The notes under the pieces were generated by a model. It was not told where the DNA came from, did no database searches, and saw nothing but the letters and a program-made list of their open reading frames with translations. DNA of 32,000 nucleotides from Alkalilimnicola ehrlichii MLHE-1 (GTDB taxonomy: Bacteria; Pseudomonadota; Gammaproteobacteria; Nitrococcales; Halorhodospiraceae): positions 1,830,001-1,862,000 of the forward strand of contig NC_008340.1 of the NCBI RefSeq assembly GCF_000014785.1. Direction: 5' to 3'. The position numbers and the translations under genes are program-made. Positions 4,362-28,084 of the stretch are shown in pieces; within the stretch, counting starts at the first letter, position 1, and the number at the start of each line of letters is the position of its first letter.

Positions 4362-4367
4362 CCGGCC

Positions 4368-5530: not shown

Positions 5531-5533
5531 GCG

Positions 5534-7766: not shown

Positions 7767-7767
7767 T

Positions 7768-8187: not shown

Positions 8188-8200
8188 GGCGGGTGATCGC

Positions 8201-8668: not shown

Positions 8669-8749
8669 GGCGGTCTCCGGCGGTCGGGTGCGGTCACGGG
8701 GTGCCCTTCCAGCCTAGCAGGCTGCCCTGGGTCCTGGCACGCCGGCCGG

Positions 8750-9622: not shown

Positions 9623-9919
9623 GGCAGCCGCCCTCCTATACCAGCACAGCCTACTGCTCGACGGCGAATGCATCGCCGCCGCTGATGCGCTGCAGCAGTC
9701 GTGCCTGCCGCATAGCGTCAGGACAGGGGCCAGTCCGCAGGGCAAGGCAAGCCTGCCACCGCAAGAGTGTACGGGGAGTATAGGTTCGCAAGCCCACGAC
9801 TTCTGCGCCGGAGGCCCTGCGGTTTTGCGTGGGCCATCGCCCGTGTGTCGATGGGGAAAGGCAGGTCATCTGCCGCCTGTTCCACACCTACTTCTTCGTG
9901 CGGCCACAGGGGCTTGCCG

Positions 9920-10366
9920 TCAGCGATTCGCCGTCAGGAACCGATCAAGCTCATTGGCGAAGGCCTGGCGGTCGCGCTGGCTCATGGCCGGGGCGCCGCC
10001 CGTGTCCACCCCGCTGGCCCGCAGGGTGTCCATGAAATCGCGCATGTTCAGACGCGCCTTGATATTACTGGTGGTGTAGCGCTCACCACGGGGATTGAGG
10101 GCATGGGCCCCTTTTGCAATCACCTCGGCGGCCAGGGGGATATCGGCGGTAATCACCAGATCCCCCGGCTCGACGCAGCGGACGATTTCGTTGTCCGCCA
10201 CATCGAAACCGGGGGCCACCTGGACCCGGCGAACATACCGCGAGCGTGGCACCCGCACGGGCTGGTTGGCCACCAGGATCAGCGGCGTCCGGGTGCGCTC
10301 CGCCGCCCGGAACAGGAGCTCCTTGATGACACCCGGACAGGCATCGGCGTCCACCCAGATACTCAT
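9920..10366 (-). CDS. YaiI/YqxD family protein (UPF0178/DUF188)
   Basis: [25 protein letters not shown]...LVANQPV...[30 protein letters not shown] is characteristic of the family. The ATG at 10366 has GGAGG upstream. Confidence 0.85.
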
Positions 10367-10433
10367 CCAGAGGCCTCCTCCAGCGCCAGTCCAGGCGCTG
10401 GGTAACGGCCTGCCCGGCGGCACTGCGGCATGA

Positions 10434-11717: not shown

Positions 11718-12015
11718 AGAAAGGATGACTCCTGGGGTGCCTACCCGCACGGCCTTGCGACACAACAGCGGGGCCCGGTCCAGGCAAAAAAAAGGGGTGA
11801 ATTCGGGGAGGCCCTGTGAGGGGGTGACCGCGAACGCGTGACGCCGACCGGAGCGCGCCAACGCCGGGGACTATACCAGTTATCGCGCCTTTCCACACCC
11901 TTTCGCGTGAGATCAGTCGGCCATGGCACAGTCCGGCTGCGGCGGGATTATGGTAATAGTGAGCCTGAGGGCCCCAAAACGACCGTCGTCAGGTAAGAGC
12001 GAGGACCGATCCGGC

Positions 12016-14019
12016 ATGAACGAAGACGCCTCAGCGGCATTGCAGCAGGCCCTGGAATCGAAGGGCGCCGACAACCTGGTGGCGGCCCTGCGCCCAATCA
12101 TCAACTGGTTGCGCCCGGCCGACCCCGCCCAACCGCTGACGGCCGAGCAGCGGGTCTCCACCCTGGCCGAGACCCTGACCCGGCGGGAAGACTTGCGGAC
12201 GCCACTTCAGGCGTTGCTGCGGGCATCGCTCTCCCAGGCCACCCACCTGCCGCTCCACACCGAGATCGGACTCTTCTCCCGGCGCGGTTTCATCGGCGAG
12301 TTCGGCCAGCGCTTCTACGAGCGCCTGAACCCGCGCCCACGCGACCCCGGTAACCTGCGCGACCTGCTTGACCAGCTCTTCGACCGCCCGGACGACCCCG
12401 AGTGGGTGACGGCCGTGCCGGACGCGGCCTGGCTGACCCTGTTCGATGCCCTGGGCCCGTCGGCCGGGGCGACGGACCCGGCCTGTGAGCGGGCCCGCGA
12501 GCAAGCCCTGTACGCGGTGGAGATGCTCTCGCTCTGGGTGGCCGCGGAGGAGCTGGAACCCGAGTTGCTACGCTTGGACCCCGGGCTGGCCGAGCGGGAC
12601 TCCCCCTTCGTGGCCCAGGAACGCGAGGTGGCCGGCTATATCCGCGCTTACAACCAGTGGCTGGAGGAAGCCGATGCGCCCTGCCCCGACGACGGCCATG
12701 CGCGGGCGCTCCTGGAGCAATGCCGCGAACAGCTCGACCACTTCCACCGGCGCGCGGTTACCCTGGGGAGCACGATCGGCCTGACGCACCTGCTGGCGCG
12801 GTTGGAACAGACCCTGGAGCGCATCGTCACCCTGCTCGACATCCTCTCCCCGGCCAGCGGCGCACAGCGGCGCCAGGTAGCGGTCAGGCTGTTCAAGAGC
12901 CTGGTCCGCGAGAATGCGCGCCAAACCAGCCTGCGCGCGCTCTGGCAGGACAACACCCACCTGGTGGCGCGCAGCATCACCGAGCAGGCCAGCAAGACCG
13001 GCGAGCATTACATCACCGAGGACCGTCGCGACTACCTGGGCATGCTCCGGGCCGGGGCCGGCGCCGGACTGATCATCGGTTTCATGGCCTTGATCAAGAT
13101 CCGGCTGGTGGAGATGGGCCTCTCCCCCGGTTGGGAGACCGTCTGGGTCAGTCTCAACTACGGCCTGGGCTTCGTCCTCATCCACATCCTGCACTTCACG
13201 GTGGCCACCAAACAGCCGGCCATGACCGCGGCACGGCTAGCGGCGGTGATCGAGACCGGCGACCAGGGGGCCGCCGACCGCCGGAAACTCGCCCAACTGC
13301 TGCTGCAGGTCGGGCGCTCCCAGTTCGCGGCCGTTGTGGGCAATGTCAGCGTCGCTCTGCCGATAGCGCTGCTGGTGGGGTGGCTAAGCATCAGCGCCTT
13401 CAACACCCCTGCGCTCAGCCCCGGACAGGCCGACTACCTGATGGAGGGGCTGCGTCCGCTGATGGGACTGGCCCTGCTGCACGCCGCCATCGCCGGGGTA
13501 TGGCTGTTCGTGGCCGGGCTGATCGCGGGCTTTTTCGACAACCGGGCGGCCTACCTGGACCTGGCGCGCCGGCTGCGTGGCAACCCCCACCTGGCACGGG
13601 TCCTGCCCGACGGCCCGCGAGCGCGGATCGCCGACTACCTGGACCAGCATTATGGAGCGCTGGCCGGCAACTTCCTGTTCGGCGTCCTGCTCGGCACCAC
13701 CGGCTACGCCGGCTACCTGATCGGCCTGCCGCTGGACATCCAGCACGTCGCCTTCGGCTCGGCCAACCTGGGCTATGCCGCCACCGTGCTGGACCCCGGT
13801 CCGGCGCTCTTTCTGCTCTACCTGGGCTTTGTGCTGTTGATCGGCGCGGTAAACCTCTGGGTGAGCTTCGGGCTGGCGCTGCATGTGGCCCTGCGCGCCC
13901 GCGGCGTGCGTCTGGGCAACCTGAGGGCGCTGGCACGGGCCTACGGCCAGGCGCTGCGCGAGGCGCCCCGGACATTCCTCTTTCCCCCGGGCGATGCACC
14001 AGACCATCCCCGGGACTAG
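12016..14019 (+). CDS. Membrane protein of the family annotated as site-specific recombinase (Gcr / SpecificRecomb family)
   Basis: A soluble N-terminal half of ~350 aa is followed by about 6-8 hydrophobic helices (GAGLIIGFMALIKIRLV, LNYGLGFVLIHILHFTV, ALPIALLVGWLSISAF, AAIAGVWLFVAGLIAGFF, FLFGVLLGTTGYAGYLIGL, LFLLYLGFVLLIGAVNLWVSFGLAL). Size and architecture fit that proteobacterial family as I recall it. I prefer the ATG at 12016 (GAGGA about 10 nt upstream) over the ORF-track ATG at 11923, which has no SD. Confidence 0.6.
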   Translation: MNEDASAALQQALESKGADNLVAALRPIINWLRPADPAQPLTAEQRVSTLAETLTRREDLRTPLQALLRASLSQATHLPLHTEIGLFSRRGFIGEFGQRFYERLNPRPRDPGNLRDLLDQLFDRPDDPEWVTAVPDAAWLTLFDALGPSAGATDPACERAREQALYAVEMLSLWVAAEELEPELLRLDPGLAERDSPFVAQEREVAGYIRAYNQWLEEADAPCPDDGHARALLEQCREQLDHFHRRAVTLGSTIGLTHLLARLEQTLERIVTLLDILSPASGAQRRQVAVRLFKSLVRENARQTSLRALWQDNTHLVARSITEQASKTGEHYITEDRRDYLGMLRAGAGAGLIIGFMALIKIRLVEMGLSPGWETVWVSLNYGLGFVLIHILHFTVATKQPAMTAARLAAVIETGDQGAADRRKLAQLLLQVGRSQFAAVVGNVSVALPIALLVGWLSISAFNTPALSPGQADYLMEGLRPLMGLALLHAAIAGVWLFVAGLIAGFFDNRAAYLDLARRLRGNPHLARVLPDGPRARIADYLDQHYGALAGNFLFGVLLGTTGYAGYLIGLPLDIQHVAFGSANLGYAATVLDPGPALFLLYLGFVLLIGAVNLWVSFGLALHVALRARGVRLGNLRALARAYGQALREAPRTFLFPPGDAPDHPRD

Positions 14020-14101
14020 GGGTCCTTTATCCGTCCGCCCGTGGCGGGCTACCCTGAGGCACCAACACTGCAATAGAAAACGCCGCCGGAGGAGTTATGC
14101 C

Positions 14102-15283
14102 ATGACCGATGACCGCCACCATTTCGGCACCCGAGCGCTCTGGGCCGGCGAGTCCGAGGACCCGCACTGCCGGGACGTGGCCCTGCCGATTCACCACAGT
14201 GTCACCTTCGCCTACGAGGACGTCGACGAGTGGTTCGATGTGGCACTGGACCAGAAGCCCGGCTATATCTATTCGCGCAACAAGAATCCGACCGTCCGCC
14301 CCTTGGAACTGACCATGCGGGCGCTGGAGGGGGCCGAGGAGGCCATCAGCTTCTCCACCGGCATGGCCGCCATCAGCAACACCCTCTATACCCTGCTGGC
14401 CCCCGGCGACCGGGCAGTGGCGATCAAGGATACCTACGGCGGCACCAACAAGATTTTCATCGAGTTCCTGCCCCGGGCCGGGGTGGATGTGGCGATGTGC
14501 GACACCCTCGACTTCGACGGTATCGAGGCGGAGATCCGTAAGGGCTGCAAGCTGCTCTACCTGGAAACGCCCACCAACCCGACCCTGAAGGTGGTCGACA
14601 TCGCCCGGCTCTCCCGGGTGGCCCACGAGCACGGCGCCAAGGTGATTGTGGATAACACCTTCGCCACGCCCATCAACCAGCGGCCGCTGGAACTAGGTGC
14701 AGACCTGGTGGTGTACAGTGCCACCAAGTACCTGAACGGCCACTCCGACGCCATGGGCGGTATCCTCTGCGGCCCCAAGGGGATCGTTGACCAGGTTTAC
14801 CACTACCGGGAGATCAACGGCGCCACCCTCCACGCCAACACCGCCTACATGATCCTGCGCGGGCTGAAGACCCTGGAGCTGCGTATTCAACGCCACAACG
14901 AGAACGCCCAGCGCATCGCCGAGTACTTGCACGATCACCCCAAGGTGGACCACGTCTTCTACCCGGGCCTACCGGATCACCACAACCACGCCATCGCCAA
15001 GGCGCAGATGGACGGTTACGGCGGTATGCTCAGCTTTGCGCTGACCGGCGACTTCGACCAAGTGAAGCGCTTTCTGCCGCGCCTGCACCTGGCCCACAAG
15101 GCCGCCAGCCTGGGCTCCGTTACCACCCTGGTGGGCCCTCCCAGGGTGACCAGCCACGTGGAGCTGACCGCAGAGGAGCGTCGGGCGGCGGGCATTCCGG
15201 AGAGCCTGATCCGCTACTCGGCCGGCATCGAAAACGCCGAAGACTTGATTGCCGACCTGGAGCAGGCCCTGGCCGGCCTCTGA
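14102..15283 (+). CDS. Cys/Met-metabolism PLP-dependent enzyme (cystathionine gamma-synthase / beta-lyase / sulfhydrylase family)
   Basis: 393 aa. The PLP-lysine motif is VVYSATKYLNGHSDAMGG, with YSRNKNPT and VDNTFATP also present. The ATG at 14102 has GGAGG about 8 nt upstream. The exact reaction cannot be assigned from sequence. Confidence 0.9.
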   Translation: MTDDRHHFGTRALWAGESEDPHCRDVALPIHHSVTFAYEDVDEWFDVALDQKPGYIYSRNKNPTVRPLELTMRALEGAEEAISFSTGMAAISNTLYTLLAPGDRAVAIKDTYGGTNKIFIEFLPRAGVDVAMCDTLDFDGIEAEIRKGCKLLYLETPTNPTLKVVDIARLSRVAHEHGAKVIVDNTFATPINQRPLELGADLVVYSATKYLNGHSDAMGGILCGPKGIVDQVYHYREINGATLHANTAYMILRGLKTLELRIQRHNENAQRIAEYLHDHPKVDHVFYPGLPDHHNHAIAKAQMDGYGGMLSFALTGDFDQVKRFLPRLHLAHKAASLGSVTTLVGPPRVTSHVELTAEERRAAGIPESLIRYSAGIENAEDLIADLEQALAGL

Positions 15284-15372
15284 CCCGGCAACGGGTCCGG
15301 GCGACAACCCGGCCGCGCCGTGCGGCGCCATCAGCGTCGCCGGCCCGGCGCCGGGCCCGCCCGGGTCACCGC

Positions 15373-15852
15373 TCAGTCGCGCTGGTAGGTGCCCACCAAC
15401 CGGTTCATACCGATGATCTTCGGCTCAATCCGCTCGAGCAGTTGCCAAAGGCTCAGCCCCGACGGCAGTTGCTCGTCGTCGTTGAGCGCCAGCACCCAGA
15501 AGTAGTACCGGTGCAGGCCGTGCCCCTCCGGGGGCATCGGGCCGCCATAGCCCACATTACCGAAGTCGTTCTTGCCCGGTGTGTACTGGTCCGTCCCCTC
15601 GGCCAGTTCGACCACATCGTTGGGGATGTTATAGAGCACCCAATGCACGAAACCGTAGGTGCCATTGGGGCTGACCAGCGGCGCATCGGGATCGTGGCAG
15701 ATGACCGCGAAGGCGCGAGTGCCATCGGGCACATTGGACCAGGCCAGGGCCGGCGAGACGTCCTCCCCTTCACCGGTATGGCGGGTCGGAATGGCGCCGT
15801 TCTCCTGGAACGCGCCACTGGTGAGTGTGAGATCCGACAATGCAAAGCCCAT
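15373..15852 (-). CDS. YbhB/YbcL family Raf-kinase-inhibitor-like (PEBP) protein
   Basis: 159 aa. HDPDAP, FVHWVLYNIP and GYGGPMPPEGHGLHRYYFWVLAL are PEBP signatures. GGAGG lies upstream of the ATG. Confidence 0.9.
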   Translation of the reverse strand: MGFALSDLTLTSGAFQENGAIPTRHTGEGEDVSPALAWSNVPDGTRAFAVICHDPDAPLVSPNGTYGFVHWVLYNIPNDVVELAEGTDQYTPGKNDFGNVGYGGPMPPEGHGLHRYYFWVLALNDDEQLPSGLSLWQLLERIEPKIIGMNRLVGTYQRD

Positions 15853-15929
15853 GAGCCGCCTCCTTTGGGTTATGGGTTATCGTCTGACCTGCCCTAGCCT
15901 ACCGCGACGGCTCCACCCATTGCATCCAT

Positions 15930-15958
15930 TTGGGCCGCGGCCAAAGCTCGATTATACT
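15930..15958 (+). promoter_or_regulatory. Candidate sigma-70 promoter for kaiB
   Basis: TTGGGC (15930..15935), a 17-nt spacer, then TATACT (15953..15958). It sits in the only AT-rich patch of the PEBP/kaiB divergent intergenic region, 53 nt upstream of the kaiB ATG. This is pattern match only. Confidence 0.25.
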
Positions 15959-16371: not shown

Positions 16372-17319
16372 ATGCAGATCAAACAGACCCCCGCCACCCC
16401 CTCCGGCCGGTCGGTGGCCGGCACCCTCTGCGGCGGCGCCGCACGGCGCTGGCTGTCCGTGCATGAGCATCAGGGCCCCGACCCTGAGCCCGGGGACAGC
16501 GAACTGTTCCGGAATATCGTGCGCTATTCCAGCGATGCCATCGTGGTCATCGACGAGGCGGGCACGGTGCGCTACGCCAACCCGGCGGCCGGACGGCTTT
16601 TCGGGCGCGCAGTGAATGCCCTGGTCGGCCGCCCGTTTGCGCTGTCGCTCGGTGGCAAGCGGGCGGAGGTGGACATCGTCCGCCCCAAGGGCGATCTGGT
16701 GGTGGCCGAAATGCACACCGCCCGCATCCCCTGGGGTGATCAGGTGGCCCAGCTTGCGATACTTCGGGACATCACTGAGTGGCGGGAGACCCTCTCGCGG
16801 CTGGACCACCTGGCCCGCTTCGATGCCCTCACCGACCTACCGAACCGCTCGGAATTACAGCGTCAACTGCGCAAGGCGCTGGCCCGGGCCAGTCGACGCA
16901 GCGCACCGCTGGCGGTGCTGTTCCTGGACCTGGACGGCTTCAAGGTGGTGAATGACACCCTGGGCCATTCCGCCGGCGACCGCCTGCTGCGGGAGGTGGC
17001 CATCCGCCTGCATGCCGCCACCCGAACCGGCGATCTCCTGGCGCGCATCGGAGGCGATGAGTTTGTCCTGGTACTTGAGGATTTCCACTGTGCCGAGGAC
17101 GCGGGCCAGGTGGCCAGGAAGCTCATCCGCACCCTGGAGCGCCCGTTCAAACTGGACGGCACCGAGCTGCGTCTGGGTGCCAGCATTGGTATCGCGCGCT
17201 ATCCGGACGATGGCAGCGGCCCGGCAGAGCTGGTCCGGGCGGCGGACCACGCCATGTACCGGGCCAAGGCCGGCGGCCGGGGCACCTACCGCTACGCCAA
17301 TGCACCCCATGAAGACTAG
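16372..17319 (+). CDS. PAS-GGDEF diguanylate cyclase
   Basis: The PAS domain is LFRNIVRYSSDAIVVIDEAGTVRYANPAA. The GGDEF domain has an intact active site RIGGDEF (17050..17064) and an I-site RTGD exactly 5 residues upstream. There is no obvious SD at the ATG, so the start is uncertain (alternative GTG at 16459). Confidence 0.85.
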   Translation: MQIKQTPATPSGRSVAGTLCGGAARRWLSVHEHQGPDPEPGDSELFRNIVRYSSDAIVVIDEAGTVRYANPAAGRLFGRAVNALVGRPFALSLGGKRAEVDIVRPKGDLVVAEMHTARIPWGDQVAQLAILRDITEWRETLSRLDHLARFDALTDLPNRSELQRQLRKALARASRRSAPLAVLFLDLDGFKVVNDTLGHSAGDRLLREVAIRLHAATRTGDLLARIGGDEFVLVLEDFHCAEDAGQVARKLIRTLERPFKLDGTELRLGASIGIARYPDDGSGPAELVRAADHAMYRAKAGGRGTYRYANAPHED

Positions 17320-17341
17320 CCCCGGGCCGGACACGGGACCG

Positions 17342-17375
17342 GCAAGCCGTTGTCGGCTTGCGGCTGGGGTTTTCC
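17342..17375 (+). terminator. Candidate intrinsic terminator after the first GGDEF gene
   Basis: Perfect 8-bp stem GCAAGCCG/CGGCTTGC (17342..17349 and 17354..17361) with loop TTGT, 23 nt after the TAG stop. A TTTT run follows at 17370..17373, but it is 8 nt from the stem, further than canonical. Confidence 0.4.
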
Positions 17376-17466
17376 ACATTAGACTTTCTGAATAGCCCAT
17401 ACTGCCCGCAGGCCGCTCCGAAGGTGTCCAACACCCGTATTCTCACTCTGGTTGCTCCCGGTACTG

Positions 17467-19365
17467 ATGGCCAGCACCCTGCTCGTTATCGGGCTGATCG
17501 CCACGGTCCGGTTCAGGGCCCGTCACGACGCTGGCCGTGACGTGGGCAACCAACCCCAGGCACTTCCCGATGAACCCGCGCTCTTTCAGAGACTTGCCGG
17601 GAACACCTCGGCCGGACTCTTCCTGGCCCGGGCAGATCGCCTGATCGCGGTCAACCCCGCGCTCTGCCGTATCCTGCGGTGCCCGCCAGAGCAGCTGACC
17701 GGGGCTGAATGGCGGCCGCTGATCCATTCCGACCACGCCGATGAGGTCGAGACCCACGTCAGCGCCCGCCTGCGCGGGCAACCGGCCAGCCCACTGCACC
17801 CGATCAGGGTCCAGCGGGGTGATGGCACCACCCGCTGGGTGGAGCTGAGCCTGGAACCGGTGGCCCTGGGCGGGGATCCCGCCATGGTTGGCACCCTCGT
17901 CGACATTGACCGCCACTGCGCGCTACAACAAGAGCTCCTGCTGAGTGAGAGGAAATACCGACAACTCGTTGAAAACGTAAATGATATAATCTATACATTG
18001 ACACCGGATGGACGCCTGAGTTACGTCTCCCCCAACTGGCCGGAGCTCCTCGGCCACCCGGTCGATCAGGTCATCGGCCGGCCCATTGCCCGGTTCGTGC
18101 ACCCGGACGACCTCCCCGGCTGCGAGGAGTTTCTCAGGCGCCTGTTCCTCACCGGCAAGAAGCAAAGCGGCATTGAATACCGGGTGCGGCACAGTGACGG
18201 TCACTGGCGCTGGCACACCGCCAATGCTTCACCCATCACCGGCGACGACGGCACCGTCATCGCCTTTGTGGGTATCGCCCGCGATATCACCGCCAGGAAG
18301 GGCATGGAGGCCGAACTGGTCTACCAGCTTCGGTTTAACGAGCTGGTCGCTGAACTCTCCACCCGGTTCGTGCGCAGCCCTGCCGAGGAGACCGATGCCC
18401 GGATCGACGATCTGCTTCGGCGGGCGGGCACCCTGTTCAATGCGGATCGGGCCTACCTCTACCTCTTCTCCGACGATGGCGAGACCATGAGCAACACCCA
18501 CGAGTGGTGTGCGCCCGCGGTCCCCTCGCTGTTGGAGGACAGTCAGCGGATGCCCGTCGCCCGCTACCCGTGGTGGCAGCGACACATGACGGCGCTGCGC
18601 GACCAGCACCAGGTGTTGTTCATCAATGACGTCTCAGCGCTGCCCGCCGAAGCAGCGGCGGAGCGGGCGCTGCTGGAGGGGCAGCAGGTGCGCACCCTGG
18701 TCTGTGCCCCGGTGGCGACGCCGGATCGGGTCATCGGTTTTTTGGGGTTCGACTCGCTGCGTCCCAAGGAGTGGCGGAAGGATCAGGGCGACCTGTTGGT
18801 CGTCCTCGGCAATCTCCTGGCCGCGGCACTGGTGCGACGGCAACTGGAGTTGGATCTGCGCAACCTGTCGGTGACCGACCCGCTCACCGGCCTGTTCAAC
18901 CGGCGCTTCCTGCGGGCGCGCCTGCTGGCGCTCATTGAGGAGTATGAGCGCCACGGACACCGGTTCTGTGTCAGCCTGGTGGACCTGGATCACTTCAAGG
19001 CCCTGAACGACCGTCATGGCCATCTGGCCGGTGACCGGATCCTGCAGGGCTTCGCCAACATCCTGCGGGACAATCACCGGGTGTTCGACATCGTCGCCCG
19101 CTACGGCGGTGAGGAGTTCGTGGTGATCCTGGTGGGAACCGAAATCGGGCAGGCGCGACGGGTGACTCGCCGCGCCCTGACAACCACCCGCAACCATGAC
19201 TTCCGTTTCAACGAGACCCCGCTGTCGATCACCGCCAGCGCCGGTCTCGCTGATATCGCGGAGTTGCCCGAAGACCACCGCACCGTGGAGCATCTCCTGC
19301 AACTCGCGGACCACCGCCTCTATCGGGCCAAGCAGCAGGGCCGCGACTGCCTGGTGGCCGACTAG
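17467..19365 (+). CDS. Membrane-anchored PAS-PAS-GAF-GGDEF diguanylate cyclase
   Basis: N-terminal TM helix (MASTLLVIGLIATVRF), two PAS domains (second: YRQLVENVNDIIYTLTPDGRLSYVSPNW...GIARDITARK), a GAF domain (...LFNADRAYLYLFSDDG...VIGFLGFDS) and a GGDEF domain. The active site is RYGGEEF (19105..19119), with I-site RVFD 5 residues upstream. The start is ATG 17467 or TTG 17452. Confidence 0.9.
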   Translation: MASTLLVIGLIATVRFRARHDAGRDVGNQPQALPDEPALFQRLAGNTSAGLFLARADRLIAVNPALCRILRCPPEQLTGAEWRPLIHSDHADEVETHVSARLRGQPASPLHPIRVQRGDGTTRWVELSLEPVALGGDPAMVGTLVDIDRHCALQQELLLSERKYRQLVENVNDIIYTLTPDGRLSYVSPNWPELLGHPVDQVIGRPIARFVHPDDLPGCEEFLRRLFLTGKKQSGIEYRVRHSDGHWRWHTANASPITGDDGTVIAFVGIARDITARKGMEAELVYQLRFNELVAELSTRFVRSPAEETDARIDDLLRRAGTLFNADRAYLYLFSDDGETMSNTHEWCAPAVPSLLEDSQRMPVARYPWWQRHMTALRDQHQVLFINDVSALPAEAAAERALLEGQQVRTLVCAPVATPDRVIGFLGFDSLRPKEWRKDQGDLLVVLGNLLAAALVRRQLELDLRNLSVTDPLTGLFNRRFLRARLLALIEEYERHGHRFCVSLVDLDHFKALNDRHGHLAGDRILQGFANILRDNHRVFDIVARYGGEEFVVILVGTEIGQARRVTRRALTTTRNHDFRFNETPLSITASAGLADIAELPEDHRTVEHLLQLADHRLYRAKQQGRDCLVAD

Positions 19366-19445
19366 GGGTTATCACGCATTACCCGCGCCCCGGCCGCCCC
19401 GTCATACTGTCAGCCACAGACCATGGCGAATCCCGGGGGAGCGTA

Positions 19446-21125
19446 GTGGCGCGTCCACTGAACCACACCATCACCGCGCGCCCCGGCCGGCCGTCCACCG
19501 CCGGCTGGGCCCGCCTGATGCTGCTCAGCGGCTCATTGGTCGGCCTCTACCTCCTGGTTGCCGTCTGGGGGTTTGCCTTCACCCCCGACCAATACGGAAT
19601 CCCGCTGGTCTGGCCGGCCACCGGCGTGGGGCTGGCCTTTGTCTTCCTCTACGGCTATCGCCTGGTGCCCGCCGTCGGGCTGGCGGCGGCGCTGGTCGGT
19701 GTCTGGTTCACCGGCGATCTCGTCGCCCCGCTGGAACAGGCCTTCACGGTGGTAGTCACGATGCTGGCCACGGCCTTGGGCACGGCAATCCTGCGCTACT
19801 GCCGCTTCGATCCCAGGATGGAACGGCTGCGCGACCTGGGCCTGCTGCTAGCGGCCGGCGGCGGCGTCAGCTCCGGGCTCGCCGCCACCGTCGGGGCCTA
19901 CAGCCTGGCGGCCAGTCCCGGCCCCCTGAGCCTCGCCCAAACCTGGTGGGTCTGCTGGAGCGCGGACCTGATGGGGCTGGTACTGATCTCGCCGTTCCTG
20001 TTCACCCTGCTGGGCGGACGCCTGGTCATGCCCTCAGGCGCGGACCTGCGCATTGGAATGATGCTGGTCACCGCCACCCTGGCCACCGGCGCGGTGGCTT
20101 ACCTGTTGGCGCTCGACCTGACCCTGGCGTTGCCCCTCTCCTACGCCGTCTTCCCGCTCGTCATGTATGCAGCATTGCGCTGCCCGGCGCCCATCACCAG
20201 TGGCCTCATCCTGGTGTTCGGGGGGCTGGCGCTGACCGCCACCGGGCTGGGTCACGGCCCCTACGCCGCGCTGGGGCTGGAGCGGAGCCTGTTGGCACTC
20301 AATGCCCAGTTGGGGTTGCTGGTCCTCACCGGCCTTTCGCTGACCGCGATCAGCGCGGAACGGGAGGCCGCTGAAAGTCGGGCGCGCCAACACCTGGAGG
20401 ATCTGGCACGCGCCGGGCGCATCAACCTGATGGGTCAGCTCTCGACCACTCTCGCCCACGAACTCAACCAACCGCTGTGCGCGCTGAGCACCTACGCCCA
20501 GGCCAGCCGCCGGCTGTTGGCCCGGGGTGATACCGAAGGCCTCGGCACCGCCCTGGAGCGACTGGAACAGAACGCCCACCGAGCCGCCCATACGGTCCGG
20601 CAAATCCGCGACTTCGCCGCGCGGCAGGACCTGGCGCATCAGGTGGTGGCCCCCGCCCACCTGATTGCCGGGGTGGAACGCCTGATGGCGCCCGAGTTCA
20701 CGCGCCGCGGGATCCATCTGAAGGTCAACGTCCAGCCCGGCCTGCCCCCGATACGCATCGCCCCCATGCAGATCGAGCAGGTGCTGGTCAACCTGCTGCG
20801 CAACGCGACGGAAGCCCTCGCCGGCCGCGCCGACGGGCGGGTGCGCCTGGCGGTCTACCGCCGCCGGCGGGAGTTGGTGCTGGAGGTCATCGACAACGGC
20901 CCAGGCATCCCGCCGGAGCGGCTGTCGCTGCTGTTCGAGCCCTTTACCAGCTGGAAGCGGGGCGGCATGGGACTGGGCCTTGCCCTTTCCCGTTCCTTGG
21001 TCGAATCTCATGGGGGCACATTCACCGCCCGCAACGGCAACGCCGGCGGGGCGGAATTCCGTTTCACTCTGCCATTGGAGGACGACCATGGCGACACCGC
21101 GACCTACGGTACATCTGGTGGATGA
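19446..21125 (+). CDS. MASE1-domain sensor histidine kinase
   Basis: A polytopic N-terminal membrane domain of ~300 aa resembles MASE1 (about 8 helices, ...PLVWPATGVGLAFVFLYG...). It is followed by the H-box STTLAHELNQPL (His codon 20457..20459), N-box LLRNATEAL, G1 DNGPGIP and G2 GGMGLGLALS. The start is GTG 19446 or ATG 19518. Confidence 0.85.
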   Translation: MARPLNHTITARPGRPSTAGWARLMLLSGSLVGLYLLVAVWGFAFTPDQYGIPLVWPATGVGLAFVFLYGYRLVPAVGLAAALVGVWFTGDLVAPLEQAFTVVVTMLATALGTAILRYCRFDPRMERLRDLGLLLAAGGGVSSGLAATVGAYSLAASPGPLSLAQTWWVCWSADLMGLVLISPFLFTLLGGRLVMPSGADLRIGMMLVTATLATGAVAYLLALDLTLALPLSYAVFPLVMYAALRCPAPITSGLILVFGGLALTATGLGHGPYAALGLERSLLALNAQLGLLVLTGLSLTAISAEREAAESRARQHLEDLARAGRINLMGQLSTTLAHELNQPLCALSTYAQASRRLLARGDTEGLGTALERLEQNAHRAAHTVRQIRDFAARQDLAHQVVAPAHLIAGVERLMAPEFTRRGIHLKVNVQPGLPPIRIAPMQIEQVLVNLLRNATEALAGRADGRVRLAVYRRRRELVLEVIDNGPGIPPERLSLLFEPFTSWKRGGMGLGLALSRSLVESHGGTFTARNGNAGGAEFRFTLPLEDDHGDTATYGTSGG

Positions 21126-21723
21126 CGATGAGGACATTCGCGAGGCCATCACCTTCCTATTGGTCGCCGAGGGGATCATGGTGCGCCCCTATGAGGATGC
21201 CGGCGGTCTGCTCGAGCGGCTGACCCCCAAGCACACCGGCTGCCTGATCCTCGACGTGCGGTTGCCGGACATGGATGGCCTCACCCTGCAACGGGAGCTG
21301 CGTCAGCGCGGTATCGACCTGCCGGTGATCTTTATCACCGGCCATGGCGACATCCCCATGGCGGTCCGTGCCGTCAACGACGGCGCGCTGGACTTTCTGG
21401 AGAAGCCCTTCCGTGACGATGCCCTGCTCGAGGCGGTGGAACAGGCCCTAGAGGTGGAGGCGGCCCACCGCGAGGACCAGCAACGCCGCGCAGAGATCGA
21501 ACAGCGCCTGGCGCAACTGACGCCGCGCGAGCGCCAGGTGTTGGAAGGGCTGCTGGACGGCAAACCGAACAAGCTCATCGCACGGGACCTGGATGTCAGC
21601 GTACGCACGGTGGAGATCCACCGGGGCAACCTGATGCAGAAAATGCAGGCCCGGAGCGCCTCCCACTTGGCCCGGCTCGCCCTGGTTTGTGACGCCTACC
21701 GGGAGCGACTGCCCAACGAGTGA
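21088..21723 (+). CDS. FixJ/LuxR-family response regulator (REC + LuxR-type HTH)
   Basis: The receiver domain is VHLVDDDEDIREAI...CLILDVRLPDMDG...VIFITGHGD. The HTH is LTPRERQVLEGLLDGKPNKLIARDLDVSVRTVEIHRGNLMQKM. The ATG at 21088 has GGAGGA 5 nt upstream. It overlaps the kinase 3' end by 38 nt. Confidence 0.9.
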   Translation: MATPRPTVHLVDDDEDIREAITFLLVAEGIMVRPYEDAGGLLERLTPKHTGCLILDVRLPDMDGLTLQRELRQRGIDLPVIFITGHGDIPMAVRAVNDGALDFLEKPFRDDALLEAVEQALEVEAAHREDQQRRAEIEQRLAQLTPRERQVLEGLLDGKPNKLIARDLDVSVRTVEIHRGNLMQKMQARSASHLARLALVCDAYRERLPNE

Positions 21724-21866
21724 CCGGGCACCCCGGCGAGGTCCGGCGCGGGTGCGTAATACCCCGTATTCCTGTGGTTGCGGCATTCCTGCATGCTGGC
21801 AGGCAAGTCCCCTGCCGGCCGAGCCCCGGCCGGGGCCACTCATCGCGCAGCCCAGGAAGGCCGAGC

Positions 21867-24341
21867 ATGCATACGGGCAACCCAGCGATCGCCCATCCGG
21901 CGCACACAGCCCCCCGAGGATGCCGGGTATGCCGGCGCATCACCGCTGTGGTCTTCGTGTCCATTATCGCCATTGAGGCCATTATCCTCTTCCCTTCCTA
22001 TCGGAACCACGAGGCGACACTGCTGGCGAACATTGAAGCCCAAGGGCTCGCCGCAGCCCGAGCGGGCCTGCCCTCCGGTCCTCACGACCGGCCGGCAATG
22101 GTCCATCTCCTGGACAACACCCCGATCGCCGGTATCGAGTGGCGGGAAGAGGAGGGACGCGCATCTTCTGTAGGTGCGCCCCTTGCGGCGACCGATGCCC
22201 GGCCGGAGGGTCGCCTGCCTGAGCCCCGCGAAGGGGGCCGGAACGGGGCCCTGATGGTCCACTGGACCCCGGAACAGCTCAACCGCGACTACGGCGTCCG
22301 GGCACGGCTGGACACGACCGGGATTGACGCCGAGCTGCGCGCCTTCCTGCTGCGCATCGCCGCCCTCGTCCTGCTGATCGCCTTGTTCGTCACCGCCGTC
22401 ACGCTGGCGGTGCTGGACCGGCTGGTATTCCGCCCCTCGCGCCGTTTGTACCGCCACATGTTGGCCGCTGGCGCCGACCCCGACCACCCCCTGGCCTACC
22501 GCCTCAACAGCAACAGGGACGATGAGCTGGGGGCCGCCAGCCAGGCCTTTGACCACATGCTGGAACGCCTGGCCAGGGACCGCACCGCACTCCGCCAGCG
22601 GGAACGGGACCTGCAGACCATGAACACCACTCTGGAGGCCCAGGTGACCAGGCGGACCGCCGCCCTCACCGAAGCCAATCACCGACTGCAACAGGAGGCG
22701 AAGGAGCGCCAGGCCGCTGAACAACAGGCCCGACGCCTGGCCCGGTTCCCCGATGAGAACAGCAACCCGGTGCTGCGGGTGAACCCCGATGGGGAGATCC
22801 TTTACGCCAACCCGGCCGCAATCCCCCTGCTCCGCCACTGGGAGGACGAACAACGGCTGCCCGCCGACTGGCAGCCCCGGCTCACGGCAGCTACGACGGC
22901 CGGCCGGGTCACGTACGAAGAGGTCGCTGTCCAGGGCCGCTGGTACCTGATGGCCATCAATCCGATCCCTGAAGAGGGTTATCTCAACCTCTACGGGGTC
23001 GATATCACCGACCGCAAGCGCTTTGAGGCGGAGCTGGCAAAGCGCAATACCGAGGACGCGCTGACCGGTCTGCCCAACCGTCAGGTGTTCCGTGACCGGG
23101 TCGGTCAGGCCCTCCGTGAGAGGGCGTCGGACCGCGGTCGGGCCGCCGTACTGCTCATCCGGATCGAGAACATGGACCTCATAAACGGCCTGGGAGGCCA
23201 CCAGGCCGGCGATCTCGTGCTTACCGCGCTGGCCCGACGCCTACGGCAAGCAGTTGCCCCCGATCAGACCCTGGCCCGTCTGGGCGAGGAGGTGTTCGCC
23301 CTGCTCATCCCCAAGGTGGCCTCGGTGGATGAGCTGGCACGGCTGTCCGAGCAACTGCTTGGGGTCCTCAACAGCAGTGTCACCTCCCAGGGCCATGAGT
23401 TCGCCAGTCGCGCTTCTGGTGGCTGGGCCATCTACCCCCATGACGGTGCCGACACCGCCACCCTGCTCCGGAATGCCCAGTTGGCCGCCCACCGGGCCAG
23501 CCGCCAGGGCGAGCGCCAGCGCTACCTGTTCTTCGTGGAGGGGCTGAACGAGGCGGTGGAGAGCCGCCAGCGGCGGCTGCGCGAACTCCGGAACGCGATC
23601 GATGACGGGGGGCTGACCCTCTGGTTTCAGCCCCAGCTCAGCAGCGACCGGAGGAGGCTGAGCGGCCTGGAGGCACTGGTCCGTTGGCCCCATCCCAGCG
23701 ATGGCCTCCTCGCCCCCGATGCCTTCATCCCGCTCGCGGAGGAGCATGACCTGATCATCCCCCTGGGCGAGTGGGTGCTCAAGGCTGCCTGCAGGCAACT
23801 CCACGAATGGCAGCAGTTGGGCCTGCCCGTACCACGACTGGCGGTCAACCTCGGGGCCCGTCACCTGCTCGACAGCCGCCTGCCGGGGTTCGTCGCGGAT
23901 CTGCTGCGCGACTACGAGCTGCCCGGTCACTGCCTGGAGGTGGAGGTGACGGAAAGCACGGTGATGGAGGACATCACCCGGAGCGAGGAGGTCCTCTCCC
24001 GGCTGGTGCGCCTGGGGGTCCAGGTGGCGGTGGATGACTTTGGTACCGGCCACTCCTCCCTGGCCTATCTCAAACGCCTGCCGATTCAACGCATCAAGAT
24101 CGACCGCTCCTTCATCGCCGGGCTCCCCGACGATGCCCAGGACCGGGCCATCTGCCGGACCATCGCCGACCTCAGCCACAGCCTGGGCTTGCAGGTCGTC
24201 GCCGAGGGGGTGGAGACAACCGCTCAGGCAGCGGCCCTGCAGCAGATGGGTTGCAATGACCTGCAGGGCTTCCTCCTTGCCCGCCCCGGCCCGATCACCC
24301 GGATCACCCATTGGCTGCGCCACGAGGCCCCCAGACCATGA
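21867..24341 (+). CDS. TM-periplasmic loop-TM-HAMP-PAS-GGDEF(degenerate)-EAL c-di-GMP phosphodiesterase
   Basis: Two TM helices (ITAVVFVSIIAIEAIILF and LLRIAALVLLIALFVTAVTLAVL) bracket a loop of ~110 aa. A HAMP domain, coiled coil and PAS-like domain (FPDENSNPVLRVNPDGEILYANPAA) follow. In the GGDEF domain the signature reads GEEVF (23283..23297) and there is no RxxD I-site. The EAL domain has intact motifs EALVRW (23670..), DDFGTGHSSLAYLKRLP, KIDRSFI, VVAEGVET and QGFLLARP. I prefer the ATG at 21867 (GGAAGG upstream). The ORF track starts at GTG 21720, overlapping the regulator stop. Confidence 0.85.
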   Translation: MHTGNPAIAHPAHTAPRGCRVCRRITAVVFVSIIAIEAIILFPSYRNHEATLLANIEAQGLAAARAGLPSGPHDRPAMVHLLDNTPIAGIEWREEEGRASSVGAPLAATDARPEGRLPEPREGGRNGALMVHWTPEQLNRDYGVRARLDTTGIDAELRAFLLRIAALVLLIALFVTAVTLAVLDRLVFRPSRRLYRHMLAAGADPDHPLAYRLNSNRDDELGAASQAFDHMLERLARDRTALRQRERDLQTMNTTLEAQVTRRTAALTEANHRLQQEAKERQAAEQQARRLARFPDENSNPVLRVNPDGEILYANPAAIPLLRHWEDEQRLPADWQPRLTAATTAGRVTYEEVAVQGRWYLMAINPIPEEGYLNLYGVDITDRKRFEAELAKRNTEDALTGLPNRQVFRDRVGQALRERASDRGRAAVLLIRIENMDLINGLGGHQAGDLVLTALARRLRQAVAPDQTLARLGEEVFALLIPKVASVDELARLSEQLLGVLNSSVTSQGHEFASRASGGWAIYPHDGADTATLLRNAQLAAHRASRQGERQRYLFFVEGLNEAVESRQRRLRELRNAIDDGGLTLWFQPQLSSDRRRLSGLEALVRWPHPSDGLLAPDAFIPLAEEHDLIIPLGEWVLKAACRQLHEWQQLGLPVPRLAVNLGARHLLDSRLPGFVADLLRDYELPGHCLEVEVTESTVMEDITRSEEVLSRLVRLGVQVAVDDFGTGHSSLAYLKRLPIQRIKIDRSFIAGLPDDAQDRAICRTIADLSHSLGLQVVAEGVETTAQAAALQQMGCNDLQGFLLARPGPITRITHWLRHEAPRP

Positions 24342-25738
24342 GCGATGGCTTCACCCACCTCCCCATGACCGGCCTGGTGATCGCCCTGGCGGCGGTGGCG
24401 CTGGTTACCTTGCTGATCGCCCCCCGGGTCAGTACCGCCAACGGGTTCTTCCGCGGTTTCGCCGACGCGGGCCAGCCGCCCGGCGTGCTCACGCTCACCC
24501 TCTCCCAGGTCACCACCTGGATCTTTGCCCGCTCATTGCTCAATGCGGCCATCCTGGGTTATTTCTTTGGCATCGCCGGTGTGCTCGCCTACACCGCCTA
24601 CTACGGCTCCTTTGTCACCGGCTGGCTGATCATCGATCGCCTTCGCTTCCGCTACGGCGCCTCCAATCTGCAGGGTTTCATGAGGGCCCAGTATGGCGGG
24701 GTGGGGACCTTCTGCCTGAACGGACTCCTGGCGCTGCGCCTGGTCAGCGAGGTGTTCGCCAACCTGCTGGTCGTCGGGATCGTCTTCGGCGCCGCCGGCA
24801 GCGCCGGCAACACCACCGCCATGCTGTCGGTGGCCGCCCTGACCCTGGTCTATTCCCTCACCGGCGGGCTCCGGGCGTCGCTGCGAACCGATGTCCTGCA
24901 GATGGTGCTTTTGATCGGTCTGCTCGCCGCCCTCGTGGTGGTCATGCTCCTGCATCCGCTCTTTGACCCCGGGGCGCTGGCGGTCAGCAGCCCCGGGATC
25001 GACAACCCGGGCTGGATCCTGCTGGCGGTCGCGGGTCTCCAGGTGCTCAGCTACCCCATGCATGACCCCGTCATGATGGACCGCGGGTTCCTCGCCGACC
25101 GCCGCACCACACGGCGCAGTTTTCTGCACGCCTTCTGGCTCTCGGCGGTGTGTATCCTGGCCTTCGGGCTGCTGGGGGTTTTCGCGGGCCTGCATCGCCT
25201 GGAGGGCGAAACCGTGCTGCTGACGCTGGACCGGCTGATGGGTACCCCCGTGATGTTTCTCCTGGCGGTGGCGCTGGTCCTGTCGGCCGCCTCGACCCTG
25301 GACTCGACCTTCTCCAGCGCGGCCAAACTCAGCATCGCCGACATGGGACTGGCCCGGACCACACCCCGCAACGGCCGGATCGCAATGCTCCTGTTCTGCC
25401 TGGGCGGGCTGCTACTGGTGCTGTTCGGCACCGACGACCTGTTCGCCGCCGTGGCCGTCAGTGGAACCGCGTCGCTGGCGCTCACACCGGTCATCGCCTT
25501 CTCCCTACTGGCCGGCTGGCGGCTTAGCCGGGCCAGTCTGCTGACCTCCTTTACGCTGGCCTTCACGGGCGCTGTCGTCTACTTCCTGGAGACCTCCGGG
25601 CATATCGACCTGCTGACCCCCCTGACCGGGCTGGAGCACGACTACAGTAAGCTGCTGGCGATCACGGTCACCATCCTGGTTCTTGCCACCGCGGCGGCCT
25701 GGCTTGGCCGCCAGGGCCGCATGGAGGTCGTGAAATGA
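24338..25738 (+). CDS. Sodium:solute symporter (SSS) family-like transporter, substrate unknown
   Basis: 466 aa with about 12-13 hydrophobic segments. The SSS-type signature is LVYSLTGGLRASLRTDVLQ. The ATG at 24338 overlaps the EAL gene stop (ATGA). Confidence 0.75.
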   Translation: MSDGFTHLPMTGLVIALAAVALVTLLIAPRVSTANGFFRGFADAGQPPGVLTLTLSQVTTWIFARSLLNAAILGYFFGIAGVLAYTAYYGSFVTGWLIIDRLRFRYGASNLQGFMRAQYGGVGTFCLNGLLALRLVSEVFANLLVVGIVFGAAGSAGNTTAMLSVAALTLVYSLTGGLRASLRTDVLQMVLLIGLLAALVVVMLLHPLFDPGALAVSSPGIDNPGWILLAVAGLQVLSYPMHDPVMMDRGFLADRRTTRRSFLHAFWLSAVCILAFGLLGVFAGLHRLEGETVLLTLDRLMGTPVMFLLAVALVLSAASTLDSTFSSAAKLSIADMGLARTTPRNGRIAMLLFCLGGLLLVLFGTDDLFAAVAVSGTASLALTPVIAFSLLAGWRLSRASLLTSFTLAFTGAVVYFLETSGHIDLLTPLTGLEHDYSKLLAITVTILVLATAAAWLGRQGRMEVVK

Positions 25739-26709
25739 GTCAGCCCGGCCGCCTTTGCCCGCTGCATTACCAGACCGGGCCCGACGCCCTACGGACAGCA
25801 CCGCTGTACCGCTGCCCCACGGTCTACCTGGTGGGCGGGCTTTACGGCAACGATGCGGCGCTGGCCGCGATTCAGGCGTTGGCCCACCGGGAGCGGGCCG
25901 CCGGCCACCCGGAGCCGCTGTTGGTGTTCAACGGCGACTTCCACTGGCTGGATGCCGACCCGGCGGTATTCCGGCACATTCAGGAGGCGGTGCTCAATCA
26001 GGCCGCCATTCTCGGCAATGTCGAGGCCGAACTGGCCCAACCCACACCGGGCATCGGCTGCGGATGCGCCTATCCGGAAACGGTGGACGATGCGACGGTC
26101 ATGCACTCCAACCGGATCATGGCACGGCTGCAGCGGATGGTGGCGGAGACGCCGGCACTGCACGATGTCACCCGCCAACTGTCGGGCCTGCCCCGTCAGA
26201 TCAGGTTGGCGGTCGGCGATCTCCGCGTCGGCGTGATCCACGGCGATCCGGAGTCGCTCGCCGGCTGGCGCCTGGCCCTGGAGCAAATGCCGGCCCCGGG
26301 GCGCACCACGTCCCGCATCCGGCGCTGGTTCGAGGTCAGTGAGGTGGACCTCTTCGCCTGCAGCCACACCTGCCTGCCCTTCGCCCAGCGCTTCACCTGG
26401 GAGCGGCGGCAGGCCCTGATCTTCAACAACGGCGCGGCGGGACTCCCGAACTTCCGCGGTGACCGCCGGGGCGTGATCACCCGTATTGCCGAGACCCCGG
26501 CCCCGGTTCCGGCGCTGTATGGCGGTGTGCTGCGGGGGGTTCACTGCGATGCGGTGCCGGTCGCCTACGACACGGCCGCCTGGGCCCGCCGGTTCCGCGC
26601 GATCTGGCCCGAGGGGTCCGCGGCCTGCCACAACTATGCCCGCCGGCTCGCCCACGGCACCGGGCTGACACCGCAGGCGGCAAACCGGCTGGGCGACCGC
26701 CGGCCCTAG
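25735..26709 (+). CDS. Divergent metallophosphoesterase-fold (calcineurin-like) protein with substituted metal-ligand motifs
   Basis: 324 aa. The order and spacing of blocks fit the MPP fold: VYLVGGLYGN (motif I position), LLVFNGDFHW (GD motif), ILGNVEAEL (GNHE position), VGVIHGDPES, LFACSHTCLPF (GHTH position) and IFNNGAAG. GGAGG lies 7 nt upstream. The ATG overlaps the transporter stop (ATGA). The fold call is from motif pattern only. Confidence 0.55.
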   Translation: MSQPGRLCPLHYQTGPDALRTAPLYRCPTVYLVGGLYGNDAALAAIQALAHRERAAGHPEPLLVFNGDFHWLDADPAVFRHIQEAVLNQAAILGNVEAELAQPTPGIGCGCAYPETVDDATVMHSNRIMARLQRMVAETPALHDVTRQLSGLPRQIRLAVGDLRVGVIHGDPESLAGWRLALEQMPAPGRTTSRIRRWFEVSEVDLFACSHTCLPFAQRFTWERRQALIFNNGAAGLPNFRGDRRGVITRIAETPAPVPALYGGVLRGVHCDAVPVAYDTAAWARRFRAIWPEGSAACHNYARRLAHGTGLTPQAANRLGDRRP

Positions 26710-26730: not shown

Positions 26731-27300
26731 TCAGGGCCGCCAAATGCGGCTTTGGAAGGCGGCATCCACCTCGGGCCCAAAGAGGTGGTTGGAGTAATTG
26801 CTGAGGGTCTTGACCGCCAGTGCCAGGATCACGCCAAGGATGTGCTTCTCTTCGTAGCCAGCCTCGAGAAAGGCGTTTACATCGGCCGTGTCCGGCCGGC
26901 CGCGGGTGTCACGCATCACCTCGGTGAACCGACGCAGGGCCTCCAGCCGCTCATCCGGCAACGGCTCGCCGTCGCGCAGCGCATCCGTGACCTCGGTGGG
27001 CACGCCGGACATGCTGTCGGCAATGACACTGTGGGCGGCCATGCAGTAATCGCAGCCGTTGCCGCGGCTGATGGTCAGGAAGATGACCTCCTGCTCCTGG
27101 GGTGAGAAACCGGCTTCGGCGCGAAACCGCTCGTAGCCGGTCATGTAGGTCTCCAGCAGGGCGGGGAGATTCGCCATGCCGGCGTACATATTGGGCACGA
27201 AGCCCAGGTTCTCCCGGGCCTTTTTCAGGGGGGCGGCGACCGCCGGATCGCTATCCTCCGTCGTCCGGAGGGGCAGGTTCATTTGATAGGGCGCACGCAT
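26731..27300 (-). CDS. Carboxymuconolactone decarboxylase / AhpD-like peroxidase-related protein
   Basis: 189 aa. The CxxC-type core is ISRGNGCDYCMAAHS, with FVPNMYAGMANLPALLE and the family-typical C-terminal NYSNH. GAGGAG lies upstream of the ATG. Confidence 0.85.
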   Translation of the reverse strand: MRAPYQMNLPLRTTEDSDPAVAAPLKKARENLGFVPNMYAGMANLPALLETYMTGYERFRAEAGFSPQEQEVIFLTISRGNGCDYCMAAHSVIADSMSGVPTEVTDALRDGEPLPDERLEALRRFTEVMRDTRGRPDTADVNAFLEAGYEEKHILGVILALAVKTLSNYSNHLFGPEVDAAFQSRIWRP

Positions 27301-27483: not shown

Positions 27484-27873
27484 TCACCCTTCGAGGATCC
27501 GCGGTCCATGCTCCAGCACACTGTGCCGGCCGTGGCGCGGGCCGGAGCGGGCCTGCTCGCCCTGACGGTCCAGGCTGGCCGCCTTGCGGGCCTCGGTACG
27601 CTCCCGCACGTCGTTCAGGTGGCGCTGATAGTTCTCACCGACCAGCACCTGGCCCTCGGAACGCACCTCAGCGCCATTGGCGCGGATATACCGCAGGTAG
27701 GTCTGGTAGTTCTCGCCCACCCGGGCGCCGTCGCTGGCAAACTGGGCCGACGGCGCATTGGCCACCACCTGGAAGGTGTGCGTGGTCCAGTTCTCGGCGG
27801 AGGCCACACCACTGAGGGCCAGGCCGGCGCCGAGGGTCAGGGCGGTCGTGGTTTTCAGGATCAAGGTTTTCAT
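27484..27873 (-). CDS. Small secreted protein with internal duplication, hypothetical
   Basis: I chose the ATG at 27873, which has GGAG 7 nt upstream. The signal peptide is MKTLILKTTTALTLGAGLALSGVASA/EN. There are two copies of VGENYQ(T/R)(Y/H)L.....R. I recognise no homologue. Confidence 0.55.
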   Translation of the reverse strand: MKTLILKTTTALTLGAGLALSGVASAENWTTHTFQVVANAPSAQFASDGARVGENYQTYLRYIRANGAEVRSEGQVLVGENYQRHLNDVRERTEARKAASLDRQGEQARSGPRHGRHSVLEHGPRILEG

Positions 27874-28084
27874 GGTCTTCTCCTTCCGCTGTGTCAAAGG
27901 TGGATCACCGATCCGGGATCCCTGCCTTGTATCCGGACCAGGCGACTGGCCCGTCGCGTCCGGGCCCCTGTTGGGCTTTCCCCGAACGCACCTTCAGCTT
28001 AGGGAGAAGACCCCTTGTGCGTAATTCGTCGGAATACCTAGCGGTTAACACATAGAAAGGCAACGACCGCGCACCGGCGGCCGC

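Follow-up and report, generated by a model that had tools for sequence, protein, structure and literature searches.

The window analysed here is a 32,000-nt stretch of the genome of Alkalilimnicola ehrlichii MLHE-1 (NC_008340.1, positions 1,830,001 to 1,862,000 of the forward strand), and coordinates given without a locus name refer to it. Three consecutive genes on its plus strand encode a membrane sensor protein with a degenerate GGDEF domain and an EAL domain (21867..24341), a divergent permease of the SLC5/SSS fold (24338..25738), and an atypical cytoplasmic protein of metallophosphoesterase (MPP) fold (25735..26709). The permease and MPP genes are translationally coupled, are found as a pair in other genomes, and belong there to gene neighbourhoods centred on the radical-SAM protein ArsS.

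Gene layout and predicted products at 21867-26709

The stop codon of the EAL gene (TGA, 24339-24341) and the start codon of the permease gene (ATG, 24338-24340) share an ATGA at 24338..24341 (+), an overlap also present in L081, a homologous locus of a relative at 75% identity. A second ATGA (25735..25738, +) joins the permease stop (TGA, 25736-25738) to the MPP start (ATG, 25735-25737), and a like overlap occurs in 26 homologous loci; a Shine-Dalgarno-like GGAGG is located within the permease gene (25723..25727, +), 7 nt 5' of the MPP start codon. These overlaps, the GGAGG motif and the three gene identities had been proposed in a preliminary description of this DNA made from the sequence alone. 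The coordinates, reading frames and lengths that it gave were borne out, and its gene assignments proved right (a Pfam EAL match at 2.6e-74, an SSF match above the Pfam cut-off, and an MPP fold recognised by Foldseek). No terminator or promoter consensus was found between the three genes in a consensus scan. Overlaps of 4 nt (ATGA) are very frequent between neighbouring genes on the same strand, and further same-strand pairs of open reading frames (ORFs) in the window likewise overlap. The MPP start overlaps the stop of the upstream gene, whichever gene this is, in 37 homologous loci (by 4 nt in 26, by 8 nt in 6 and by 1 nt in 5). The overlaps are ordinary, operon-like packing, and nothing in them is special to the combination of EAL, SSS and MPP genes.

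The EAL gene most likely starts at the ATG at position 21867, which has AGGAAGG just 5' of it and gives a protein of 824 aa; this start is favoured because the L081 orthologue is also 824 aa long. The product is a HAMP-PAS-degenerate GGDEF-EAL membrane sensor protein (Pfam EAL 2.6e-74, GGDEF 6e-30, HAMP 1e-5), in which an N-terminal CxxC is followed by a first transmembrane segment (TM1), a periplasmic loop of about 110 aa, a second transmembrane segment (TM2), HAMP, a coiled coil, PAS, GGDEF (read as GEEVF) and EAL. The EAL match (PF00563) reaches 250 bits against a cut-off of 31.3 and covers profile positions 2-236 of 236. Catalytic and metal-binding residues of EAL enzymes are the E of EAL, an R, an N, ExxE, DD, a K, the E of EGVE and a Q; in the alignment with relatives (A3), E602, R606, N661, E693/E696, D723/D724, K744, E780/E783 and Q800 are invariant. 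The intact GG[DE]EF motif of PF00990 is replaced by GEEVF here, and by TEDVF, GGDIF or GADRF in the relatives. Because the EAL residues are kept and the GGDEF motif is degenerate, the protein is apparently an active cyclic di-GMP (c-di-GMP) phosphodiesterase and not a cyclase. It has in common with the DibA, DosP and HmsP types a degenerate GGDEF followed by an EAL domain with conserved family residues, but it scores far below every NCBIfam equivalog cut-off and differs in its N-terminal module. This module comprises an invariant C-R-x-C, a conserved first membrane helix, the periplasmic loop of about 110 residues, a second helix and HAMP (A3). It is rare, a word-index search having returned 3 homologues, too few for a synteny survey. 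The 143-nt gap 5' of the gene (21740-21866) contains a GC-rich inverted repeat, ccggccgagccccggccgg, which may serve as a regulator site or mark where the upstream transcript ends.

The permease (466 aa) was assigned to the SLC5/SSS fold from Pfam SSF and Foldseek. Its SSF score is 28.3 bits (cut-off 22.8), with a match limited to residues 50-203 in the N-terminal third, and comparison of its profile with the Protein Data Bank (PDB) returned no solved relative by sequence. When its AlphaFold2 model (pLDDT 81.7) was searched with Foldseek, the top 30 matches were all SLC5/SSS structures (TM-score about 0.65-0.74), with CHT1, SGLT1/2, NIS, SMCT1 and SiaT at the top; on this model, the permease is predicted to have the LeuT-type SLC5 fold. 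It thus resembles SLC5/SSS transporters (CHT1, SGLT, NIS, SMCT1, SiaT, PutP/ActP) in its fold (TM-score about 0.7) and in an SSF score above cut-off, but differs from them in fitting the Pfam model by the N-terminal third alone and in its TIGR00813 score (28.9 bits, far under the cut-off of 184).

The MPP protein (324 aa; motifs GGLYGN, NGDF, GNVE, HGD and SHTC) has 100% identity to an NCBI protein of strain MLHE-1. It scores 19.5 bits with Metallophos_2, under the cut-off of 27, has no match in NCBIfam, and its profile found nothing useful among PDB sequences. Its AlphaFold2 model (pLDDT 88.6) gave 109 PDB matches at E <= 1e-3 in Foldseek, and the 50 matches listed are MPP-fold proteins; the closest are SapH (3qfm/3qfn), 1nnw, 2gju and 3rqz (E 2e-11 to 3e-8). 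From this model, the third gene clearly encodes a protein of predicted MPP beta-sandwich fold. Canonical MPP motifs are DxH, GDxxDR, GNH[DE], H and GHxH, which provide two metal sites and a catalytic His. Here they read G35-x-Y37, G-D68, G-N95-V96-E, H169 and H211-x-C213, and their conservation was evaluated in 120 close homologues and 19 diverged ones. All four ligands of metal site 2 (D68, N95, H169 and H211) are invariant, which leaves this site intact. At metal site 1, three of four ligands have been substituted, as has the catalytic His (the residues concerned are the Asp/His of motif I, the His of GNH[DE] and the final His of GHxH). The metal-site-1 ligand positions are occupied by Tyr37, which is invariant, and Cys213, present in 92% of sequences. 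Both Cys of a Cys109-Gly-Cys111 loop (GCGC) after motif III are invariant; of the 120 close homologues, 119 have Cys8, which lies in an N-terminal GRxCP segment. Even the strongly diverged subtype retains the CGC motif, the Tyr and the ligands of metal site 2. To judge from this alignment, the site is conserved, but it is not a classical binuclear hydrolase site. Compared with SapH/Spr1479 (PDB 3QFM/3QFN), 1NNW, 2GJU and 3RQZ, the protein has the same beta-sandwich fold (TM-score about 0.7) with the five motif positions at the ends of predicted strands; identity is 15-20%, however, with GxY in place of DxH, GNVE in place of GNHE and SHTC in place of GHxH, and the GCGC loop and the GRxCP segment are additions of the window family.

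Genomic neighbourhoods of the MPP and permease families

Eighty MPP loci from different species were compared using tblastn, de novo clustering of ORFs and NCBIfam, the last providing the identities of marker families. ArsS (TIGR04167, a radical-SAM protein) was found near the MPP gene in 36 of the 80 loci, followed by a fusion of DedA with an FAD-disulfide-oxidoreductase (31 loci), TIGR04283 and TIGR04282, both named "arsenosugar biosynthesis glycosyltransferase" (28 loci each), components of PhnD-, PhnE- and PhnC-type ABC importers (16-21 loci), TIGR03169 (13 loci) and MTAP (11 loci); DUF547, DUF3047 and an ECF sigma factor were also recurrent. Considering the loci of at least 12 kb, 39 of 56 hold at least one marker among ArsS, TIGR04282/04283, the DedA-FAD oxidoreductase fusion, TIGR03169, DUF547, DUF3047 and MTAP.

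Of 66 loci, 16 have an SSS permease gene directly upstream of MPP on the same strand, 14 have PhnC there and 14 ArsS. Orthologues of the permease with 60-70% identity adjoin MPP genes. None of the 80 loci contains both SSS and PhnDE, and this mutual exclusion suggests that the two importer types (SSS and PhnCDE-type ABC) fill one role. A recurrent Burkholderiales operon has the order ArsS, PhnD, PhnE, PhnC, MPP, MTAP (L018, L033, L044, L055, L059, L062 and L080, around positions 4000-9800), with the MPP start overlapping the PhnC stop. In the Marinobacter locus L022, a 323-aa protein with a radical-SAM-like CNLACPFC motif (5507-6478) is encoded between the DedA-FAD oxidoreductase and the SSS-MPP pair; it gave no ArsS match at the BLAST threshold used, and the slot may here be taken by a second type of radical-SAM protein.

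The neighbourhood is comparable to the ArsS-centred "arsenosugar biosynthesis" or radical-SAM-selenodomain neighbourhood (TIGR04167, TIGR04282, TIGR04283, TIGR04169, TIGR03169), which embeds the MPP family in most long loci, often right after ArsS; its TIGR04169 is weakly resembled, as is TIGR01926, by an AhpD-like gene of the window. It differs in that NCBIfam has no model for the MPP or the SSS family, that no literature was found placing them there, and that the window is without its core genes. Literature searches (ArsS/arsenosugar with metallophosphoesterase, the TIGR accessions, and DUF3047) returned no paper on the MPP family or on its pairing with the permease. To our knowledge, and in the literature searched, the steps linked to ArsS (supply of the substrate, its reduction and the later processing of the sugar) are poorly defined, as is the purpose of the selenium-linked ArsS neighbourhood that is widespread in Proteobacteria. 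Two uncurated families, one of divergent SLC5 permeases and one of MPP-fold proteins whose metal site carries Tyr/Cys substitutions, can now be added to it as regular members, both with clear sequence signatures and a defined operon position, in a cultivable arsenic-metabolising organism, Alkalilimnicola ehrlichii.

The pairing was also surveyed from the permease side, using 80 metagenome loci with SSS homologues at 51-66% identity, 65 of which have room for a downstream gene. An MPP-like gene lies near SSS in 24 of these 65 and directly downstream in 16; most belong to the diverged subtype, recognised by profile alone. Because this subtype also pairs with SSS, the sequences indicate that the pairing is old and recurrent. 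Members of the diverged subtype (L130 2573-3469, L140 9370-10266, L160 3944-4855 and 16 other metagenome loci, on mostly marine contigs) lie directly 3' of SSS homologues and carry the motifs FGGxYSN, CTGD, GNCE, CGCGF and GGHSG; in L130 and L140, a convergent GGDEF gene follows immediately. Among close relatives, Halospina has the order NirBD, SSS, MPP, methyltransferase, ArsR-rhodanese, DsrE, and Aquisalimonas (L085) the order CHASE-PAS-GGDEF, SSS, MPP, DUF3047, DedA, Pyr_redox, MASE1 histidine kinase, response regulator. The relative at 75% identity (L081) keeps the order of the window, namely histidine kinase, response regulator, GGDEF-EAL, SSS, MPP, convergent CMD gene and HrpA.

Direct adjacency of EAL, SSS and MPP genes was found elsewhere in L081 only, with its ATGA overlap between EAL and permease genes, and no EAL gene adjoins MPP in any of the 80 other genomes. 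The co-occurrence of the EAL, SSF and MPP triplet, which the preliminary description had proposed as a check, is therefore retained in one relative and is absent from the wider sample. Homologues of the sensor-EAL protein (33-41% full-length identity, with degenerate GGDEF-EAL and CRxC-TM1 in common) were nevertheless found at 8 kb or less from MPP in L019, L028, L035 and L053, their hosts being Nitrincola, Marinospirillum and two Burkholderiales metagenome-assembled genomes; a single-copy gene placed at random would, by a rough estimate, give about 0.3 such loci. In Marinospirillum (L035), one strand carries MerR, SSS, MPP, MFS, ChrA, DedA-FAD oxidoreductase and sensor-EAL genes in succession, with a divergent MerA-like gene. 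In the same Marinospirillum celere locus (4633-15931), AhpD-like and ECF sigma factor genes lie about 4 kb upstream of this MerR-headed string. Apart from these proteins, the sensor module has detectable homologues only in two HAMP histidine kinases (39-42% identity; L166 1828-3387 and L167 36-1523), whose genes lie immediately 5' of those for BufA1 (bufferin precursor) and MbnB-like proteins. We take these bufferin loci to be metal-stress peptide loci, which hints that the CxxC-TM sensor module detects metal or redox stress.

Possible roles of the permease-MPP cassette and its link to the EAL gene

The reading that the permease (24338-25738) and MPP (25735-26709) genes form a conserved two-gene cassette, elsewhere part of an ArsS-type neighbourhood, for the uptake and processing of a metalloid or oxyanion is given about an even chance. 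The cargo of the permease would be a small anionic solute, with a metalloid oxyanion or an organo-metalloid (of As or Se) as the most plausible candidates. The cytoplasmic MPP-like protein would bind or transform it in a thiol-flanked oxyanion pocket, and would not be a classical two-metal phosphoester hydrolase. The upstream degenerate GGDEF-EAL protein, co-transcribed here, would probably tie the c-di-GMP level to the same stimulus. An As or Se cargo and its binding or transformation by the MPP protein are suggested by the thiol-rich substituted site, by the interchangeability of SSS with a phosphonate/selenate-like ABC importer, and by neighbours such as MerR, MerA-like, ChrA, ArsR-rhodanese and AhpD-like CxxC genes.

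Several observations weigh against this reading. By tblastn, ArsS, TIGR04282/04283, the DedA-FAD oxidoreductase fusion, TIGR03169, DUF547, DUF3047 and MTAP are absent from the 32-kb window, and the metalloid assignment rests on the annotated names of neighbours, themselves mostly putative. About 40 of the 65 SSS loci are without any MPP gene, and no conserved partner was seen in them; the permease family also works alone, and SSS as an obligate MPP partner was rejected on this count. As for c-di-GMP, the sensor-EAL family is found in just 4 of the 80 MPP loci, and the density of c-di-GMP genes around MPP (0.94 per 100 kb) was judged near background; a generic enrichment of such genes by MPP was rejected, this value being about that expected for such genomes.

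A more detailed version of the metalloid reading, which we regard as speculative and improbable, is that the MPP protein is a phosphatase fold recruited to metalloid chemistry. An anion resembling arsenate, arsonate or selenate, delivered by the dedicated SLC5 or Phn-type importer, would be bound in its retained metal-2/oxyanion pocket; the thiols of C8, C109, C111 and C213 together with Tyr37 would reduce this anion or hand it on, for example to ArsS; and c-di-GMP would be tied to the same signal through the EAL phosphodiesterase with its CxxC sensor. There would be a parallel in known arsenate reductases, which evolved from phosphatase folds.

A first alternative is that the EAL gene is merely the last of five signalling genes (16372-24341), that the SSS-MPP pair follows it by chance, that their shared transcription is without functional significance, and that the sensor does not respond to the substrate of the cassette. 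It is possible, though we doubt it: the run in the window does lie on one strand (PAS-GGDEF, PAS-GAF-GGDEF, MASE1 histidine kinase, response regulator, degenerate GGDEF-EAL), direct EAL-SSS adjacency is confined to one close relative, and c-di-GMP genes are no commoner near MPP than expected by chance, but a GGDEF-EAL protein with the same unusual sensor module lies close to MPP in four distant lineages, against the roughly estimated 0.3 loci for random placement, and the ATGA overlap is conserved in L081. A regulatory link of the EAL gene to the permease-MPP pair is plausible, at roughly even odds, and looser than the link between the permease and MPP themselves. The preliminary description had offered, as its own second choice, a transporter and an esterase processing an external solute sensed by the periplasmic loop of the EAL protein. 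This proposal is partly supported, by the conserved SSS-MPP pair and by GGDEF-EAL proteins with the same sensor module in four distant MPP clusters, once in the same string.

Another explanation is that the MPP-like protein is catalytically dead and acts as a regulatory or scaffolding partner of the importer, in the manner of the degenerate Vps29. The loss of metal-1 ligands and of the catalytic His would agree with it, as would the tight coupling to a preceding transporter gene, whether SSS or the ABC ATPase PhnC. It is nevertheless quite improbable: all four metal-2 ligands and Y37, C109, C111, N231, G233 and G236 do not vary even in the diverged subtype, a pattern typical of sites conserved for catalysis or for binding a ligand, and MPP directly follows ArsS in 14 loci with no transporter between them.

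The function first proposed for the MPP protein, a dedicated second-step enzyme hydrolysing the pGpG (or c-di-GMP) of the upstream EAL protein, is very improbable and was set aside as unsupported: it can draw on the EAL gene upstream in the same overlapping operon with its EAL residues kept, on SapH, the closest structural neighbour of MPP, being a nucleotide (Ap4A) hydrolase, and on the EAL-SSS-MPP order kept in the relative at 75% identity, but EAL-MPP adjacency is missing from the 80 other genomes, where the partners are transporters and ArsS-cluster genes, c-di-GMP gene density by MPP appears to be at background, MPP has substitutions at the Asp/His of motif I, at the catalytic His of GNH[DE] and at the final His of GHxH, and the permease, the real conserved partner of MPP, stands between the two genes. 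The likeness to the pGpG nucleases Orn and NrnA/PggH (DEDD and DHH-DHHA1 types) is limited to this proposed function; the MPP protein belongs to another superfamily with no sequence or fold relation to them, and Pfam and NCBIfam gave no DEDD exonuclease or DHH-DHHA1 match in it.

Neighbouring genes in the window

An AhpD/CMD-like protein with a CxxC (GCDYC) is encoded at 26731..27300 (-), convergent with the MPP gene and separated from it by a 21-nt gap. It matches Pfam CMD (PF02627; 2e-7, 31.3 bits against a cut-off of 23), and reaches 61.6 bits with TIGR01926, under the cut-off of 81.8; its TIGR04169 match is weak. The gene occupies the same place in L081, and homologues at 41-55% identity lie near SSS/MPP in L018, L032, L035, L041, L054 and L095. 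It is a probable further member of the neighbourhood.

Upstream of the EAL gene, a MASE1 histidine kinase (19446..21125, +) and its partner response regulator, with receiver and GerE/LuxR-type helix-turn-helix domains (21088..21723, +), were identified with Pfam. The kinase shares 40% full-length identity with the kinase of the Aquisalimonas SSS-MPP neighbourhood (L085), and the regulator is 52% identical to that of the same locus; the pair is likewise considered a probable addition to the neighbourhood, with the kinase as a possibly linked regulator. The regulator gene overlaps the kinase gene by 38 nt. Both belong to the five consecutive signalling genes at 16372-24341 (+), the first two of which encode PAS-GGDEF and PAS-PAS-GAF-GGDEF proteins; in L081, a KaiB gene lies just upstream of this run.

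A 137-aa ORF (27484-27897, -) located between the genes for the AhpD-like protein and HrpA has a signal-peptide-like N-terminus and matches no Pfam family. Two further genes are unrelated to the cassette, a large AMP-binding/PP-binding/acyltransferase fusion (731-3394, -) and a PF10136 site-specific recombinase (11923-14019, +).

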